Positions 39-8,486 of a stretch of 64,000 nt of DNA are shown piece after piece. The notes below the pieces were generated by a model. The model ran no database searches, was not told the DNA's origin, and saw only the letters and a list, made by a program, of their open reading frames with translations. The stretch is from Escherichia coli (GTDB taxonomy: Bacteria; Pseudomonadota; Gammaproteobacteria; Enterobacterales; Enterobacteriaceae). The stretch lies in the NCBI RefSeq assembly GCF_003334305.1, contig NZ_QOWS01000025.1; one strand, written 5' to 3'. The translations under genes were made by a program, and so were the position numbers. Every line of letters begins with the position of its first letter. Position 1 is the stretch's first letter.

Positions 39-590
39 ATGAAAAAGAAAACAACACTTAGCGAGGAGGACCAGGCTCTGTTTCGCCAGTTGATGGCGGG
101 GACTCGCAAGATTAAGCAGGACACGATTGTCCACCGACCGCAGCGTAAAAAAATCAGCGAAGTGCCGGTGAAACGCTTGATCCAGGAGCAGGCTGATGCC
201 AGCCATTATTTCTCCGATGAGTTTCAGCCGTTATTAAATACCGAAGGTCCGGTGAAATATGTTCGCCCGGATGTCAGCCATTTTGAGGCGAAGAAACTGC
301 GCCGCGGCGATTATTCACCGGAATTGTTTTTGGATTTACACGGTCTGACGCAGCTGCAGGCCAAGCAGGAACTGGGCGCGTTGATTGCCGCCTGTCGCCG
401 CGAACATGTGTTTTGTGCCTGCGTGATGCATGGGCACGGGAAGCATATTTTGAAGCAACAAACACCGCTGTGGCTGGCACAACATCCGCATGTGATGGCA
501 TTTCACCAGGCACCGAAAGAGTACGGCGGTGATGCGGCTTTGTTGGTGTTGATTGAAGTGGAAGAGTGGTTGCCGCCGGAGTTGCCCTGA
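39..590 (+). CDS. smrB: Smr-domain protein SmrB (YfcN)
   Basis: 183-aa ORF with C-terminal Smr-like region ([42 protein letters not shown]); lies immediately upstream of the yfc fimbrial cluster as in E. coli. Confidence 0.9.
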
Positions 591-662
591 GGAGTTGAGC
601 GTGTTGTGCCAGGAGCGCGGAATGGCAGGGGCGAATGACCCTGCCAGGTGAGAAAAGGTGCG

Positions 663-1532
663 CTAATACATATTCAGTATGTAAGTGAATCGGCAGGTAG
701 AATCTATGGGCTGTCGAGATGTCGTGTCCACGCGTAGCTTCATATCATGCAGTTGCCTGGACGTAATCGGTTGCGGCTCAGGCGTCACCGTCACTTTGGC
801 ATTATCACAGCCGGAAGTCGAGAAGGTCATCTGCTGTGCGATAAAACGGCAGTAGGCACCACGCTCATCAAAATTATTCCCGTTACACAGTTTGCCATTT
901 TCCATCAGGAAAGTGGGCAGTGTTTGCTCAATAACACCACCTGTTGACTGCAACCTGACGACTTTGTTATGTACAACATAATTTTCATTCCAGGAAACAT
1001 CATACGGTGCCAGGGGCACCGCCGGACATGAAGAACTCACCTTCGTTGGGCCAATATAGTCAGGAAAATCATCATCATACGTTTTAGCGAAGGGATCTCT
1101 ACTCTTAACAAACGACGACACAATCCACGGACAACCATGTAAATTCCCATCGTAATAAACAAACATCTTTAATTCATTACATGTCCATCCCGTTTTGGTC
1201 TGGCTATCATACTGCTCTAATCCAGGACAGGCTGACATGGATACCCTGCTGTCCGAAATTTTCGACATAGATGGTTGAGTAGAACTATCGCCAGTCCACG
1301 AAACTAAATCCGGCTGTGAATTGGGCATGAATGTAGCCTTAAATATAGCGTAATTAACTGAATCTGGCGTCGCTATAATCAGATGAAACTCAAACTCTGT
1401 CGCAGGTGAACTGGCACCAGCTGGCACATATAACTCACCAACTTTCGTCGCCGCCTGGCCGCATGTATTGAACATTAACAGCAATAAAAGACATAAAACA
1501 TGACGAAGGATTTTCATTTTAAATATACTCAA
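663..1532 (-). CDS. yfcO: Yfc fimbrial-like protein YfcO (last gene of operon, putative tip component)
   Basis: 289-aa ORF with N-terminal signal peptide (MKILRHVLCLLLLLMF); real start is probably the internal Met near 1517; last gene of the yfcV-to-yfcO operon. Confidence 0.8.
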   Translation of the reverse strand: MSIFKMKILRHVLCLLLLLMFNTCGQAATKVGELYVPAGASSPATEFEFHLIIATPDSVNYAIFKATFMPNSQPDLVSWTGDSSTQPSMSKISDSRVSMSACPGLEQYDSQTKTGWTCNELKMFVYYDGNLHGCPWIVSSFVKSRDPFAKTYDDDFPDYIGPTKVSSSCPAVPLAPYDVSWNENYVVHNKVVRLQSTGGVIEQTLPTFLMENGKLCNGNNFDERGAYCRFIAQQMTFSTSGCDNAKVTVTPEPQPITSRQLHDMKLRVDTTSRQPIDSTCRFTYILNMY

Positions 1533-2058
1533 AAGTTGCTGTCAGGCTGGCGGTGAAATCACCGATGGTTACATCACGACCGCTTTTCGCCTGGATCCAG
1601 GCCCGGAAATTAATATCATTGTTGCCGTTGGTAAGCGCAAAGGTCGCCCCGGTGGTGTTGTTAATATCCACCCGCTTGCCGTCGAGCGTTTCCATCCCTA
1701 TCCCCACGCCCTGCGCGGTGGAGGTGTCATCGACTGCCAGAAAACCCGGCTGACCGCTGTCTTCGGTGCCGCTCAGCGTGACTTTGACGTTGTATCCCGC
1801 CGGCCCTTTGCAGTCTTTCAGCTTAAACACAACCGGCAGATGCGCGGACTGCCCAGATACCATCAAATCCCGGTTGCTGACGGTGGGAAAATGGATTTCT
1901 GCCAGGTTGGCACCATCCACCACCAGCGTGCAGGATTTACTCAGCAGGTTGCCGTAAAAATGCAGGTTGTTGTCGACTGCCTGAGCTCCTGTGCTGGCGG
2001 TCAGCAGCAGGCCTGCTAACAGCGCATAACCGGGTGAATAAATGTGTGCTGTTTTCAT
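1519..2058 (-). CDS. yfcP: fimbrial-like minor subunit YfcP
   Basis: 179-aa ORF with signal peptide and pilin-like C-terminal beta-strand (TATFEYI); position in yfc operon. Confidence 0.85.
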   Translation of the reverse strand: MKTAHIYSPGYALLAGLLLTASTGAQAVDNNLHFYGNLLSKSCTLVVDGANLAEIHFPTVSNRDLMVSGQSAHLPVVFKLKDCKGPAGYNVKVTLSGTEDSGQPGFLAVDDTSTAQGVGIGMETLDGKRVDINNTTGATFALTNGNNDINFRAWIQAKSGRDVTIGDFTASLTATFEYI

Positions 2059-2543
2059 TGGTAATCCACCCGTAAGGTTGCGTAAGCAGAAAAGGTCGTG
2101 TCCGTCAGCACCGCATCAGCCGCTTTGACCGGTACCGCCTCCAGCTTTGGCTTCTGGCTAAAATCGGTGGCGTTAATGGAAAGCGGCTCGTTGAGCTTAA
2201 AACGCTGACCGTCATGCTGAAGCTCAATTCCGAAGCCCGGTACATCCGTCTCAATAGCAGAGTCGTTGTAGGAGGTGGCAGTCCCCGTCCAGGAGAGTGT
2301 CATATTCCACTCGGGATCGCGGACATCCGAGTCGCAGCTCAGTTCGTAGTCCACTTTCTGACGACCATAATTGCCATCAATGCTGTCGATAATGAGATCG
2401 CGAAATTGCACTTCGATGGTTTGCCCGCCGCTGATGCTACAGGCGGGCGGCGACATCAGCGTACCGTGGAATGTGATGTCATCTTCCGCCGCCAGCACAG
2501 CCCCGCAACCAGCGCACAGTAAAAGGAGCAGGAATTTTTTCAT
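2055..2543 (-). CDS. yfcQ: fimbrial-like minor subunit YfcQ
   Basis: 162-aa secreted pilin-like ORF; 4-nt overlaps with both neighbours suggest translational coupling. Confidence 0.85.
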   Translation of the reverse strand: MKKFLLLLLCAGCGAVLAAEDDITFHGTLMSPPACSISGGQTIEVQFRDLIIDSIDGNYGRQKVDYELSCDSDVRDPEWNMTLSWTGTATSYNDSAIETDVPGFGIELQHDGQRFKLNEPLSINATDFSQKPKLEAVPVKAADAVLTDTTFSAYATLRVDYQ

Positions 2544-3049
2544 TGGTAATCCACCACCATGGTCATCGTGGCGTTAAACTCCGACGGCGTCAGTTGCACC
2601 CCGCTCTGTTTTACCGGCACCGCTTTCAGCTGAGGCTGAGTGTTGACATTAAAAGGCGTCCAGTTATTTTCACCAACTGCAAACAGGGAGTTGTCGGCGG
2701 CGTTTTCTATCCGCACCCCCAGGCCGGCGATATCCGTGCTGAGAACCGTTTCTCCGTTGATCACGGCGGTATTGCCTTTGAGCTGCATCCGTAAGTCATC
2801 GCTGACTTTATTACCGCAGTTGAGGGTGTATTTCGCATCCTGTTGGTAATTGGTACCATCGATCCTGTTGATTATCACATTGCCAAATTTCACAGCGCTT
2901 CCCTTCACGGAGCAAGGCGGCGGTCCATCGACCAGGATTCGCAGCGTCAGATCCACCTGTTTGATATCACTGCCAGCAACAGCCAAACCGCTGATGCCCC
3001 ATCCGGCCAGCACCAGCAACCCTGCGCCCGCTACAAACTTGTGACTCAT
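2540..3049 (-). CDS. yfcR: fimbrial-like minor subunit YfcR
   Basis: 169-aa secreted pilin-like ORF with C-terminal motif TMTMVVDYQ resembling that of YfcQ (ATLRVDYQ). Confidence 0.85.
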   Translation of the reverse strand: MSHKFVAGAGLLVLAGWGISGLAVAGSDIKQVDLTLRILVDGPPPCSVKGSAVKFGNVIINRIDGTNYQQDAKYTLNCGNKVSDDLRMQLKGNTAVINGETVLSTDIAGLGVRIENAADNSLFAVGENNWTPFNVNTQPQLKAVPVKQSGVQLTPSEFNATMTMVVDYQ

Positions 3050-3064
3050 AAGTCCCTCCCGGCA

Positions 3065-3817
3065 TCAGCCTTTGCGGCTCTGCTCTTCATCCACCTGGCA
3101 GCTGTTGCCGGTGCATATGAAGTACAGCGGCATCCGCGCGCCGTAGTCGTTGATGTAAGTCAGCACCGGCACGCTGTCCATCTTCGCATTCAGCGGTGCG
3201 GAGGTTTTCGGCTCCATCATCAGCGGTGTGAATCCCGCCGGCGGGTTGCCGCCTTTTTTAGCGCTGGCGTTGCTGATGATCACGTAGTACGGCGTCGGGT
3301 TATTGACGGTGAAGTCCTGGCCGTTACGGATGAGCGTCACCTTATGCTGCCACGGACTTTTCATGCTGGTGTTCTCCAGCGCCTTCGGTCGCCAGAACAG
3401 TTTGATACGCGTCTGCAGCGCAATCTGCAGTGTGTTCGGTTTATTTGATTTCGGCGGAATTTCGCGCACGTTGAAATAGAACACGCTCTCGCGGTCGGCC
3501 GGCAGTTTGTTGATATCCGGCAGCCCCTGCACCTTCACCTGGCCGTTCATCATCGCATCGATGCGCTGCACTGGCGGAAGCACCGCAAGCGGCGAGCTGA
3601 TTTTGTTGCCCTTTGCATCCTCTATCCAGCTCTGCGCCAGATAAGGCAGTGTGGGATCGTTGTTGCGCAGCGTGACGCTGATGGACTTGTCGCTTTCGTT
3701 AAACACCAGCCGTGTCCTGTCGGGCGTCACCGAAGCGTGGCTGGAGAAACTGACCGCTGTCGCCAGCAGCGCCAGTGCCGGGACAACGATTTTTGCAGTG
3801 TTAGTCAGATTAAACAT
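3065..3817 (-). CDS. yfcS: periplasmic pilus chaperone (PapD-like) YfcS
   Basis: 250-aa ORF with signal peptide and chaperone-family sequence character; position between usher and minor subunits. Confidence 0.9.
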   Translation of the reverse strand: MFNLTNTAKIVVPALALLATAVSFSSHASVTPDRTRLVFNESDKSISVTLRNNDPTLPYLAQSWIEDAKGNKISSPLAVLPPVQRIDAMMNGQVKVQGLPDINKLPADRESVFYFNVREIPPKSNKPNTLQIALQTRIKLFWRPKALENTSMKSPWQHKVTLIRNGQDFTVNNPTPYYVIISNASAKKGGNPPAGFTPLMMEPKTSAPLNAKMDSVPVLTYINDYGARMPLYFICTGNSCQVDEEQSRKG

Positions 3818-3836: not shown

Positions 3837-6479
3837 TTACTGGTTTACTGAAATTGAAGTCGGAGGTTCCGTTGGCGTCACCCGCTGTGTCTGTTCCTGA
3901 ATCGCCGGTTTGACCGCCGGCGAAGTGATAGGTGCTACATTGCCTTTATGCTGGCATGGCAGTAACAAGCCGTTAAACAGATCGGCAGGCAGCGGGTCCG
4001 GCAGGTTGATATCGCAATGCGCAACACCACTCCAGAACACACTCATGTGTTCGCCAGGTTTCACCCCAGCCAGATAAACATTGCCGTCATCATCGACAAG
4101 GCCCACTGTCTGCTCGTTATCATTTTTTACTTCTGCGCCAAACGGAGGATGGCTGCCGTCTTGTAAACGCAGCACCGCCATCGCTTTTTGACCACTGATG
4201 ACGGCAAATTTGCGGTAGCCAATCGCCCCTTCAGTTAGCGTGGCTTGTACCACCGACTGGGTTGCTTCGGCGTTTTCCGGCAGTTTGTTGAGGTCGATAT
4301 ACGCCTGATTGCGGTAATAGTTATTGACGTCAGAAACGACGGCTTTACCAAACATATTGGTATAAACAGCAGCACCGTTACCTTCTACCGGAACATCGGC
4401 AACGCCATCGGCATCAATCAACAAGCGTGTCCCGCCCATATTCTGGGTACGGTGAAGTGCGCCACCGTGGGCAGTAAGCGTTGCGCCGCCCTGTAACGAC
4501 AAGCCCGCAGAGGTGTATTGCCCTTCATGGTAGTTCGCACTGAGGTCAACCTGCGCCAGCGAACCATCATGGCTGTAATAGCCGTCAACGCTGGTGTGTT
4601 TGTCACTGGTGCCGACGTTCAACTGATAGTGAGTCGCGTCATCGACACGGCTGAAATAACCGACCTGACTGCTGTCCGTCCCACTGCCATAGTTACCGTT
4701 ATAGCTAACGGTACTGTTGTCGCCCCACGGCATACTGAGCGAAATGTACATGCCTTTGTCGGCCTGGTTGTCATACTCGTAACGGTAGCCAGTCATCGAG
4801 ATGCTGACATTACGAATACTGCCCATATTGAAATAGTGCGAGAGCATGATGTTGTAGTTTGTCTGCTCCTCGCGATCCCAGTAGGTATGGCGGGTATAGT
4901 TGAGATAAACCGAAACACCCGCATCGCGGAAGTTCTGGTTATAAGTGGCGGTGTACATCTCTTTGTCGTTGCCCGTGCGTACCATTCCGCTGTCACTGGC
5001 ATCCAGATACTCGCTCATGGTCATAAAGTTCTCTTCCGAGAAGCGATATCCAGCAAAAGTAACGCGGCTGTTGAGCTGGTCAAAGTCTTTGGAATAACTC
5101 ACACGGAAGGAGTTACCGTCCAGCGAACCTTTGCCATAAGCGGTGTCTTTATCCAGTTTGGTGTGCGAGTGAGTAACATCAAACGCGACCGCGCCGAATG
5201 TAGACAAATCGCGACCGACGCCAAGCGCCGCAGACTGATAGTTTTCATCTCCCAGTGCGCCGCCATATAACGACCAGCCGTTAGCGATCCCCCAGGAAGC
5301 TTCAGCACCAGAAAAAAATTCACCCTCGACATGGTGTCCCCACTCTTGCGGACGGCCCATCATGATCTTATAGCGAACCTGACCTGGGCGAGTGAGGTAT
5401 GGCATCGAGGCGGTGCTGATGTCATATTCCTGCACCTGGCCGTTCTGTTCTTCAATGCGAATATGCAACGTACCGGAGACAGAATCACCAAGATCCTGAA
5501 TACGAAACGGTCCAGCCGGAACCTGCGTTTCGTAAATCACACGCCCCATCTGGCTGACGGTCACTTTTGCTGTGGTGTGTGCCACGCCGGAAATGTCTGG
5601 CGCGTAGCCGCGCAGATTGGGAGGCAACATTTGATCGTCAGTACTGACACTGCCACCAACATAGTTAAAACCATCAAAAATATCGGATCTGAGGTAATCC
5701 TCGCCCAGCGCCAGTTTGGCTTTTAATGATGGTAACGCCCGCCAGGCATAGTAGCGACTCCACTCCCATTTTTTTTGAGTTTCATCGCCGCTGAATTCAT
5801 CGTCATCATTACTGCGAGTATGTTGATAGTTAGTCTGCCAGTCAGCACGCATACGCCACGGCCCCAGGTTAACCCCGACCGTCCCGTTGCCGCTGATCTC
5901 GTTACTATCATCACCGCCATTTTCTTCGTGCCGGGTTTGTGCGTTGATGCTGTAGTCCGCGACGATCCCGGAGATGCCGTCATCCCAACGTGAAGGCGGA
6001 TCCCAGTCGGGATAAGTATATTCGAGGTAAGCCTGTGGCAGTGAAATGACTAATGCGGACTGGCTTAAATCAGCCTTAATTTCCATGCCTTCCAGTTGAC
6101 CGGATTTCAGGCATTTAGCATCGTGGCTCCATTGCAGATTTTTCGCCACGTCTTCTTTTAAACCAAACTGCGCTACCAGTTCCGGTGTCAGACAAGCATA
6201 GCTTTTGCTCGCGTCATCTTCACCAGCATACCAGTAAATATCGTACTCTTCCGCCAATGGCTGTTTATTTAGTTGAACCTGTAAATTGTATTTTCCGGGC
6301 TCAACATATCCCTGGCTGGAAAAACGCTTCAGATCAATTTTTGTGTCGCCTTTTAATTCCAGAAAACGGGAATCAAACTGAATGTCGTCTTCAGCCCAGA
6401 CACTGCTATAACTCCCTGACATTGCCAGCGCAATGCACCACGGAAGAATCCGTAATCGAAAAAGAGAATGGTCAGGCAT
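3837..6479 (-). CDS. yfcU: outer-membrane fimbrial usher YfcU, full length
   Basis: Uninterrupted 880-aa ORF with signal peptide, typical usher size; in K-12 this gene is a disrupted pseudogene. Confidence 0.9.
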   Translation of the reverse strand: MPDHSLFRLRILPWCIALAMSGSYSSVWAEDDIQFDSRFLELKGDTKIDLKRFSSQGYVEPGKYNLQVQLNKQPLAEEYDIYWYAGEDDASKSYACLTPELVAQFGLKEDVAKNLQWSHDAKCLKSGQLEGMEIKADLSQSALVISLPQAYLEYTYPDWDPPSRWDDGISGIVADYSINAQTRHEENGGDDSNEISGNGTVGVNLGPWRMRADWQTNYQHTRSNDDDEFSGDETQKKWEWSRYYAWRALPSLKAKLALGEDYLRSDIFDGFNYVGGSVSTDDQMLPPNLRGYAPDISGVAHTTAKVTVSQMGRVIYETQVPAGPFRIQDLGDSVSGTLHIRIEEQNGQVQEYDISTASMPYLTRPGQVRYKIMMGRPQEWGHHVEGEFFSGAEASWGIANGWSLYGGALGDENYQSAALGVGRDLSTFGAVAFDVTHSHTKLDKDTAYGKGSLDGNSFRVSYSKDFDQLNSRVTFAGYRFSEENFMTMSEYLDASDSGMVRTGNDKEMYTATYNQNFRDAGVSVYLNYTRHTYWDREEQTNYNIMLSHYFNMGSIRNVSISMTGYRYEYDNQADKGMYISLSMPWGDNSTVSYNGNYGSGTDSSQVGYFSRVDDATHYQLNVGTSDKHTSVDGYYSHDGSLAQVDLSANYHEGQYTSAGLSLQGGATLTAHGGALHRTQNMGGTRLLIDADGVADVPVEGNGAAVYTNMFGKAVVSDVNNYYRNQAYIDLNKLPENAEATQSVVQATLTEGAIGYRKFAVISGQKAMAVLRLQDGSHPPFGAEVKNDNEQTVGLVDDDGNVYLAGVKPGEHMSVFWSGVAHCDINLPDPLPADLFNGLLLPCQHKGNVAPITSPAVKPAIQEQTQRVTPTEPPTSISVNQ

Positions 6480-6560
6480 ACACGTTTCTATCCGTTTTTA
6501 TTCTTGTTCGGTCAAAATCCATTTAAATCCCCCATAGCAGTGTCGCTATGGGGGTATGCC

Positions 6561-7124
6561 TTACAGGTAAGTAATCTGGAAGGTGGTATTTGCTTCGAAA
6601 TTACCCAGATCTGGCGCATCAGCTGCGCCGACCAGCCAGGCTTTAAAGTTCAGTGTCTGCTTCGCTTTGCCTTTATTGGTAGAAGTGTCTTTCACTATTT
6701 TCTGGTCAATACCCATGCCGCTTTTGTAAGAGGTACCCAGAGAGTCACCGATCGCTAGGCTAACATTGTTAAATGCCGCACCGGTATCGGTATTGAAAAT
6801 GGTGTAATAATTGCCGCTATTTGCAGAAGAAACGGTACCAGTAAAGGTAGTGGTCATTGTTTCCTGAGTATCAAATACGCAATCTTGCAGACGAATCTGG
6901 AAACTTTTCGGCGTGGTGGTGCCGTTATTTTTCAGTTTTTCGGCACCGATATCACCCATATCAACTTCCAGTTTGTGATCGTCCGGAACGATAGAACACA
7001 CTGAGTCTTCAATGGTGCCGTAAAAACGTGCAGTACCGTTGTTACCCGCAGCGATTGTTGCCGTAGAGGTGAAAACGCCCATCACCATTGCCGCAGCAAT
7101 AGCTGTTTTAACAAACTTACTCAT
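6561..7124 (-). CDS. yfcV: major fimbrial subunit YfcV
   Basis: 187-aa ORF with signal peptide and pilin-like C-terminus (TTFQITYL); first gene of operon, preceded by a long AT-rich control region. Confidence 0.85.
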   Translation of the reverse strand: MSKFVKTAIAAAMVMGVFTSTATIAAGNNGTARFYGTIEDSVCSIVPDDHKLEVDMGDIGAEKLKNNGTTTPKSFQIRLQDCVFDTQETMTTTFTGTVSSANSGNYYTIFNTDTGAAFNNVSLAIGDSLGTSYKSGMGIDQKIVKDTSTNKGKAKQTLNFKAWLVGAADAPDLGNFEANTTFQITYL

Positions 7125-7752
7125 TATTTGTCCTTAAACTATAAATAATTAAAAATATAAACATTACAATACATTGATTCAGTCAATACCCAATGTTTAT
7201 ACCCAGCCATTGAATACGGCATGCGATCCAAAAAGAACAGGTCGTAGAAAATTGTATTCTTTGGTGTGGGGCCGCATAGTGATGTTTTCACCCCCCTGAT
7301 GCAATTTAATTTTACTAAAGAGTAAATGTAGATTTAATTAATATATTGACAGAAGAAAGGTTATCTTAAGGACATCCTTAAAAAATACGGAATAAGTATT
7401 TAGAAAAAATAGAAAGTATATCAATAATGAATATCAACAGCTTAAAAAACAAACAATGAACATATAATGCGATTGGCATTTATCCACTTTTGACAATATA
7501 ATATATAAACACTATAGCCAGAATTTAATCAAGTTTCAATTACATCCTGCCTGATTATTCAACTCTATTATCTGTATTAATAAATGACAATGAGTGTCAA
7601 ACAGACATTATTCATTTCAACATGTAACTTTGGGCAAAATCAAGATACGCGCAGAAGAATAATTTCCGAATGAATGTAGAAAGTGTTTTATTTATAGATA
7701 AGGAGAGTCTTCGATAGTAGTGAGGTTGACAGATATCCGCTGCCTGATGAGC

Positions 7753-7789
7753 AATTATGCCCAATGAATCTACCTCATTGGGCATAATT
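7753..7789 (-). terminator. stem-loop downstream of sixA (15-bp perfect stem, weak U-tract)
   Basis: AATTATGCCCAATGA-atctacc-TCATTGGGCATAATT begins about 9 nt after the sixA stop codon. Confidence 0.45.
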
Positions 7790-7798
7790 TGGAACACA

Positions 7799-8284
7799 TC
7801 AGATAGCTTTTGCCATCTTCAGATTACACGGGCTCATCTGCCAGTTGAATGTACCGTTTCCGCTTTCATCAAGCGTTACGCTGGCAATGGCCGAGGTGGT
7901 AAACATAGGCGGCGTTTCGCCCGGACATAACTCGGCAACCAGATACCCGACTAACGGTAAGTGAGAGATCACCAGTACCGAAGCAACACCTTCATTGGTC
8001 AACGCCTGCAAATAGGCACTGACCAGACCAACATCGCCGCAGGGCGTTAACTCCGGCAGAACTTCTGCACTGGAAGGCAGGTTCAGACAATCCCCCACTT
8101 CTTCCAGTGTTTGCTCGGCTCGCAGGAACGGGCTCACCAGAACGCGTTCGATTTCCACTTTTTGACCTTTCAGCCAGTTCGCCATCAGGCGAGATTCGTC
8201 ACAACCATTAGTGGTCAGAGGACGAACGGAATCACTGGCGGCATCGAGGGCTGCGTCGCCGTGACGCATGATAAAAACTTGCAT
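7799..8284 (-). CDS. sixA: phosphohistidine phosphatase SixA
   Basis: 161-aa ORF beginning MQVFIMRHGDA (histidine phosphatase RHG motif); conserved position downstream of fadJ. Confidence 0.95.
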   Translation of the reverse strand: MQVFIMRHGDAALDAASDSVRPLTTNGCDESRLMANWLKGQKVEIERVLVSPFLRAEQTLEEVGDCLNLPSSAEVLPELTPCGDVGLVSAYLQALTNEGVASVLVISHLPLVGYLVAELCPGETPPMFTTSAIASVTLDESGNGTFNWQMSPCNLKMAKAI

Positions 8285-8486
8285 ATTGCACCGCTTTTGT
8301 TAACCAGATTCGCCCGTTTTCTTTCATCTGAAACCAGAGAAAGAAAACGGTGGCCGGCATTGTGCCTTATCCATTCACCGAATGAAACGCTGTTTTTTAC
8401 CTCAATGGCGTAAGTATAGTCAATATGCGTTTACATTTTGACCAACACTCCGCCATTCAGCGCGGATTCATATAGCTTTGACCTTC

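Follow-up and report, generated by a model that had tools for sequence, protein, structure and literature searches.

The 674-bp spacer between yfcV and sixA is, with a probability that we put at about 0.8, the regulatory region of the Yfc fimbrial operon, a promoter island that is silenced by H-NS and that functions without a DNA switch. We studied it in a 64,000-nucleotide (64-kb) stretch of Escherichia coli DNA, the whole of which is referred to here as the window. The control region of yfcV is already catalogued in E. coli K-12 as H-NS-bound and the main interpretation is already published; what is new here is modest, namely that an AT-rich spacer is kept in every allele class despite a nearly unalignable sequence. 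On the reading that we prefer, RNA polymerase would be able to bind several sigma-70-like sites in the spacer, notably that running from 7539 to 7511 and possibly the conserved proximal site running from 7304 to 7276. H-NS would coat the AT-rich DNA of the spacer and keep the operon silent in ordinary growth, such that it is relief from silencing, and not a DNA switch, that expression of yfcV would require. The distal 45 bp, with the hairpin at 7753-7789, would be the terminator of sixA, shielding yfcV from read-through and lying outside yfcV control, and a 16-bp repeat that had been described as a palindrome would have no special role. The locus comprises the following features:

7125 to 7798, no strand assigned: intergenic spacer between yfcV and sixA, AT-rich and promoter-dense, allelic to a K-12 'promoter island' (from boundaries, composition, motif density and literature).
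6561 to 7124, minus strand: yfcV, the major fimbrial subunit gene, heading the yfcV-U-S-R-Q-P-O chaperone-usher operon (open reading frame and RefSeq annotation).
7799 to 8284, minus strand: sixA, encoding a phosphohistidine phosphatase, the conserved upstream neighbour at the edge of the variable locus (open reading frame and annotation).
7131 to 7135, minus strand: AAGGA, the Shine-Dalgarno sequence of yfcV, within 7111-7139, a block that shows no variation among the allele classes.

The spacer extends exactly from 7125 to 7798, with the ATG of yfcV at 7124-7122 on the minus strand and the stop codon of sixA at 7799. It is 100% identical in several sequenced strains, such as strain 503025, and the RefSeq annotation of the locus was taken from this strain, which is likewise 100% identical. 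Open reading frames and annotated complete genomes give the operon order yfcO-P-Q-R-S-U-V on the minus strand, with sixA, fadJ and fadI beyond it, and the annotated neighbours of the spacer are the yfc genes, smrB, prmB, aroC, sixA, fadJ, fadI, yfcZ and fadL. Compared to K-12 MG1655, the spacer shows 91.9% identity overall and 91.5% in its core. The genes from yfcO to yfcS (about 400-3800) are just 52-82% identical to those of K-12 as against 98% for yfcV, and the operon is thus a mosaic. The usher gene yfcU (3837-6479) is intact here and encodes 880 amino acids, whereas the K-12 copy is a pseudogene with an internal stop; therefore, silencing would in this case hide a potentially functional operon. 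IS1 or IS5 insertions are found at the yfc locus in several genomes, some of them within or next to the spacer or yfcV; in one genome an IS1 stands in place of yfcV, the greater part of the spacer and the beginning of yfcU.

The preliminary description of this DNA had presented the region upstream of yfcV as far more AT-rich than the flanking genes, and this is borne out. The GC content is 31.0% in the spacer, compared with 45% in yfcV, 53% in sixA and 48.4% in the window as a whole, and it is the lowest among all 674-bp stretches of the 64-kb window; in its core (7301-7700) the GC content falls to 26%. Next in AT-richness within the window is a stretch at about 14250-14500 (about 30-33% GC), which, by offset from the annotated identical strain, corresponds to the fadL-yfdF intergenic spacer. 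Runs of at least 8 nt made up solely of A and T occur at 16.3 per kb in the yfcV spacer versus 4.3 per kb in the window, the tetramer TATA at 16.3 versus 2.2 per kb, and sigma-70-like hexamer pairs at 17.8 versus 2.45 per kb (roughly 7-fold), so that these elements are 4- to 7-fold denser in the spacer. A second scan for promoter-like sites found 8 in the spacer, versus 4.0 +/- 2.0 in shuffled sequences. Two hallmarks of promoter islands are thus seen directly in the spacer, namely an AT content far above that of the flanking genes and a high density of sigma-70-like sites on both strands. Matches to the high-affinity H-NS motif TCGATAAATT with at most one mismatch are absent from the spacer, and H-NS binding is for this reason inferred from composition. 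The spacer has three matches with two mismatches, as AT content alone predicts, and the total for the window is not above that of shuffled sequences; the motif, matched at two mismatches only, was accordingly set aside as uninformative beyond AT content.

The earlier suggestion that this is a typical H-NS-silenced fimbrial promoter region finds support in published data on the K-12 allele (PMC3661553, PMC3946193, PMC3559732). The K-12 yfcV/sixA spacer is listed as entry 2453647_489, of 489 bp, one of 78 'promoter islands' (Panyukov and Ozoline 2013, PMC3661553). The compilation marks it as bound by H-NS on the basis of the ChIP data sets of Kahramanoglou and of Oshima. Promoter islands are described as having an extreme density of potential starts and as being bound by RNA polymerase and targeted by H-NS, with almost no full-length transcript (PMC3661553). 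Genomic SELEX places both a peak of the RpoD holoenzyme and an H-NS site in the K-12 spacer (PMC3946193), and a peak of the RpoS holoenzyme has also been located between yfcV and sixA (PMC5493296). The Yfc fimbria has been characterized as core-associated, functional but cryptic, and cryptic fimbriae as H-NS-repressed (PMC3559732). Several conditions are known to raise yfcV expression: overproduction of the PapB-family regulator TosR in strain CFT073 increases the yfcV transcript with a log2 change of 5.2 (PMC5956150), overproduction of BolA increases yfcV mRNA (PMC4337573), and so does inhibition of Rho by bicyclomycin (bioRxiv 10.1101/2023.10.23.563548). These responses are consistent with relief of silencing, though none of the three probed H-NS itself.

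The window spacer thus shares AT-richness and a roughly 7-fold excess of promoter-like sites with the K-12 promoter islands (PMC3661553), but it is a different allele, 91.9% identical, and the binding data pertain to K-12. It is from the K-12 literature that H-NS occupancy, binding of RNA polymerase and cryptic expression are known, and by analogy all three would extend to the 92%-identical allele examined here. The operon and its chromosomal position are also those of one of the H-NS-silenced cryptic fimbriae yad, yeh, yfc, ybg, sfm, ycb and yra, as these are relayed from Korea et al. 2010 by PMC3559732. Like such cryptic chaperone-usher operons, that of the window is preceded by an AT-rich spacer and lacks a linked regulator gene.

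Against this background, three promoter-like sites in the spacer deserve separate consideration:

7511 to 7539, minus strand: P1, TTGAAA-17-TATAGT, sigma-70 promoter-like and directed toward yfcV, with a start predicted near 7504, which would place it some 380 nt before the ATG.
7276 to 7304, minus strand: P2, TTGCAT-17-CACTAT, a proximal candidate directed toward yfcV, with a start predicted near 7269, which would place it some 145 nt before the ATG.
7473 to 7502, plus strand: TTGGCA-18-TATAAT, promoter-like and pointing away from yfcV, with 11/12 consensus matches.

The promoter of yfcV predicted under the RpoD SELEX peak in K-12 is TTGAAA-17-TATAGT (PMC3946193), and P1 in the window has exactly these hexamers and this spacing. 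The window, K-12 and EC21Z-144 alleles all carry an intact P1, but in those of O157 and B2 it is degenerate; hence this prediction under a SELEX peak may not be the physiological promoter. With its weak -10 element (CACTAT), P2 is regarded as a candidate only. Its -35 TTG, its 17-nt spacing and the pattern CAnnAT are kept in 9/9 aligned alleles while the letters of its spacer vary, and it may be the ancestral promoter of yfcV, which would then have a 5' UTR of some 145 nt. The searchable literature yielded no mapped transcription start site for yfcV, and the choice of the promoter that is actually used is in either case a prediction from these sequence features. The spacer of the P2 candidate includes a C6 homopolymer at 7291-7296 (G6 on the yfcV strand), where K-12 has GGGGAG. 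Two evolution studies have recorded mutations in the sixA-yfcV spacer (PMC10783092, PMC8136491), among them an insertion of a single base, +T.

The plus-strand site at 7473-7502 stands face-to-face with P1, their predicted starts being about 5 bp apart, and its position is conserved in the alleles of K-12, O157 and EC21Z-144, with a weaker version in B2-type alleles. Such a site could be taken as the start of an unannotated gene, either a small RNA running from 7473-7502 on the plus strand to a hairpin at 7753-7789 that would act in both directions, or a small protein. The near-consensus hexamers of this site, their conserved position in several allele classes and a TTTGG that follows the hairpin on the plus strand would all fit a small RNA. 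However, an Rfam scan of 6500-8500 gave no match at E <= 1, and nothing is annotated in the spacer in MG1655 or in other RefSeq records. Moreover, conservation within the spacer is lowest where the would-be transcript (7510-7750) lies, only 7-24% of positions being identical across classes there, and open reading frames of 61, 50 and 41 amino acids are not kept across alleles, for which reason these small frames were ruled out as genes. A hidden gene in the spacer is highly improbable.

The hairpin itself is better understood in relation to sixA:

7753 to 7789, minus strand: putative sixA terminator hairpin, with perfect 15-bp arms and a 7-nt loop, 10 nt past the sixA stop codon.

It has a folding energy of -31.3 kcal/mol (z = -5.4). 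In the window allele its tail, AAUUGCUCAU, lacks a clean U-run and a simple terminator scan made no call, while the O157 and EC21Z-144 alleles have canonical U-runs after the hairpin. Every allele class has a hairpin at this place, with different stems, namely CCCAATGA/TCATTGGG, CCCGATGT/ACATCGGG and CCCGGT.../...ACCGGG. On this evidence from sequence, the element is a putative terminator of sixA rather than a control element of yfcV, and its positions, which had been counted in the yfcV control region, are better assigned to the upstream gene.

We then compared the spacer across 5,426 complete genomes and aligned nine spacers representing at least five allele classes. sixA was matched in 5,426/5,426 genomes, at 93-100% identity, and similarity collapses right past its putative terminator, with 3,072/5,426 genomes having an alignable spacer. 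O157-type spacers match at 74% identity over the proximal 287 bp only, and the B2-type and D/F-type spacers gave no BLAST match to the window spacer. In all six allele classes examined, the spacer measures 558-680 bp and has a GC content of 26-32%, while the sequences are almost unalignable. This suggests that the composition of the spacer is itself maintained. Alternatively, AT-richness under weak sequence constraint could in part reflect neutral drift of a non-coding spacer.

Within this divergent spacer, the share of identical positions across classes falls from 54% near the ATG to 7% at the distal end, and three blocks are conserved, namely the ribosome-binding site and start (7111-7139), TTCAATGGCT (7205-7214) and CCAAAGAATA (7255-7264). 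Two proximal elements form an inverted pair:

7255 to 7264, minus strand: CCAAAGAATA, the upstream arm of the pair, nearly invariant across allele classes.
7207 to 7216, minus strand: TATTCAATGG, the downstream arm, complementary to 7255-7264 at 8/10 positions.

Only 0.13% of 10-mer pairs in the spacer are as complementary as these two blocks, which lie 35-44 nt apart depending on the allele. AAGAATA/TATTC may loosely resemble half of an RcsAB box, a candidate that was set aside. The conserved features raise the possibility that H-NS coating is mere background and that the operative module lies at 7205-7304, comprising a weak, activator-dependent P2 together with a 5'-UTR stem or a paired operator. 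The conservation gradient toward the ATG, the retention of P2 in all nine alleles around a varying spacer and the rare complementarity of the two blocks would agree with such a module, as would the single substitution seen at a paired position, which gives a U-G wobble. On the other hand, the -10 of P2 is poor, the stem pairs never covary across the aligned alleles, and the gradient perhaps reflects mere linkage to the conserved 5' end of yfcV. The consensus RNA fold of the proximal 165 nt is weak as well (-5.3 kcal/mol) and shows no covariation, so that a consensus RNA structure is not claimed for it. We consider a proximal module of this kind possible, though distinctly less likely than not to be the operative one. 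The narrower proposal that the blocks at 7255-7264 and 7207-7216, downstream of P2 (7304 to 7276), constitute a specific, previously undescribed element acting beneath H-NS silencing is a degree more speculative. If it were true, the element would be a 5'-UTR stem or paired operator that every Yfc allele class has retained within a spacer otherwise too diverged to align, and the timing of production of the core but 'cryptic' Yfc fimbria would depend on it. The conserved blocks and P2 are for now leads rather than findings, and as such they are better candidates for specific control, and better targets for mutagenesis, than the palindrome that had been singled out previously.

The latter feature is as follows:

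7366 to 7381, no strand assigned: imperfect 7+2+7 inverted repeat, judged a chance feature from its symmetry, from simulations and from conservation.

It had been called a perfect palindrome at this position; the position holds, but the perfection does not, as a CA centre breaks the symmetry. The sequence at 7366-7381 is TTAAGGACATCCTTAA and its reverse complement is TTAAGGATGTCCTTAA, the two differing at the two central bases; the structure is thus TTAAGGA-CA-TCCTTAA, with 7-bp arms around a non-complementary centre. First-order Markov simulations of the spacer contain at least one inverted repeat of the form 7+(0-4)+7 in 34% of cases, and the repeat is therefore no more than would be expected by chance. 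Its conservation was tested over the 5,426 complete genomes with a 48-mer centred on the repeat. This 48-mer is present exactly in 1,672 of them; in the K-12-type allele (1,196 genomes) it is found at 82.5% identity, with the left arm destroyed, and in the other genomes no homologue of it was detectable. Likewise, among the nine aligned spacers the repeat is unrecognisable outside the window's own class, and besides its degradation in the K-12 type it is absent from four other allele classes. The compared genomes that lack it still have a yfc-type operon adjoining sixA; a site needed for the control of yfcV would not be expected to disappear while the operon stays.

The proposal that the repeat is a plausible site for a regulator, in its stronger form the operator of a dedicated dimeric regulator of yfcV, thus fares poorly. 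In its favour, positions 7366-7381 do hold 7-bp inverted arms around a 2-nt centre, and on the yfcV strand the repeat overlaps with a -35 hexamer of a weak promoter-like kind. However, such imperfect repeats are common in composition-matched simulations, the exact form is restricted to fewer than a third of the genomes, it is broken in K-12, and the O157, D/F-like and B2-like alleles show no trace of it with the operon kept in all of them. Further, no regulator gene adjoins the yfc locus. We therefore consider an operator at this place very improbable, and retain the H-NS-silenced promoter island as the preferred reading of the spacer.

The remaining question is whether the spacer might be a phase-variable switch, either an invertible one like fimS or a pap-like one based on Dam methylation and Lrp. 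Phase variation is common among fimbrial operons, and weak inverted repeats at 7333-7355 and 7487-7509 do surround the area of P1. However, this is the best flanking inverted pair in the spacer and it is only 78% complementary over 23 nt, in agreement with the earlier failure to find a convincing fim-like pair; the sole perfect long inverted repeat in the spacer is the hairpin at 7753-7789. The annotation has no recombinase gene within 9 kb of the spacer. As a population test for inversion, we used the match statistics of the spacer over the 5,426 complete genomes, with the fimE-fimA spacer, which contains fimS, as a positive control. The yfcV spacer was matched in 3,100 genomes at 3,105 places, an excess of 5; for 3,072 genomes, at least 80% of the query is covered by a single place, and among the 28 genomes without such a match at least some are cases of IS insertions or deletions. 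In contrast, the fimE-fimA control, matched in 4,720 genomes, had 262 extra places, and in 270 genomes its best match fell short of 80% coverage. Three of these partial matches were inspected, and in each a 322-bp piece (query 45-366) is accompanied by another place in the same record, a two-place pattern that is as expected for an inverted fimS. Since fimS was detected, the population test can see a real switch, and none was seen at the yfcV spacer; the absence of an invertible switch, for which the preliminary description had looked among repeats, thus holds at the level of populations also. The spacer is single-copy, confined to chromosomes and never on plasmids, and a repeated or mobile element was accordingly rejected as a candidate.

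The fimS region of type 1 fimbriae resembles the yfcV spacer in being an AT-rich fimbrial promoter region bound by nucleoid proteins, and the fim spacers are likewise among the listed promoter islands (PMC3661553). The difference is that about 5% of assemblies show the two-place pattern for fimS, whereas the yfcV spacer has neither inverted copies nor a recombinase nor good repeats. The pap switch, too, shares with yfcV a long AT-rich spacer upstream of the gene for the major fimbrial subunit, but it has a pair of conserved GATC sites, located within Lrp sites, along with papI and papB. GATC occurs once in the spacer of the window, twice in that of K-12 and not at all in the B2 alleles; a pap-like methylation switch is thus unlikely, as the GATC pair is not conserved, and genes of the papI/papB type are not annotated at the yfc locus. 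Taken in either of its forms, a phase-variable switch in this spacer is to us scarcely credible.

With an H-NS-silenced promoter island as the preferred reading, the yfcV-sixA spacer would be a textbook example of how a cryptic adhesin operon is kept off by xenogeneic-type silencing, and as such it matters little beyond bookkeeping. Nevertheless, yfcV is widely used as a marker of uropathogenic E. coli, and Yfc is present in all of the 5,426 complete genomes examined; knowledge of its inducer would hence have some value.
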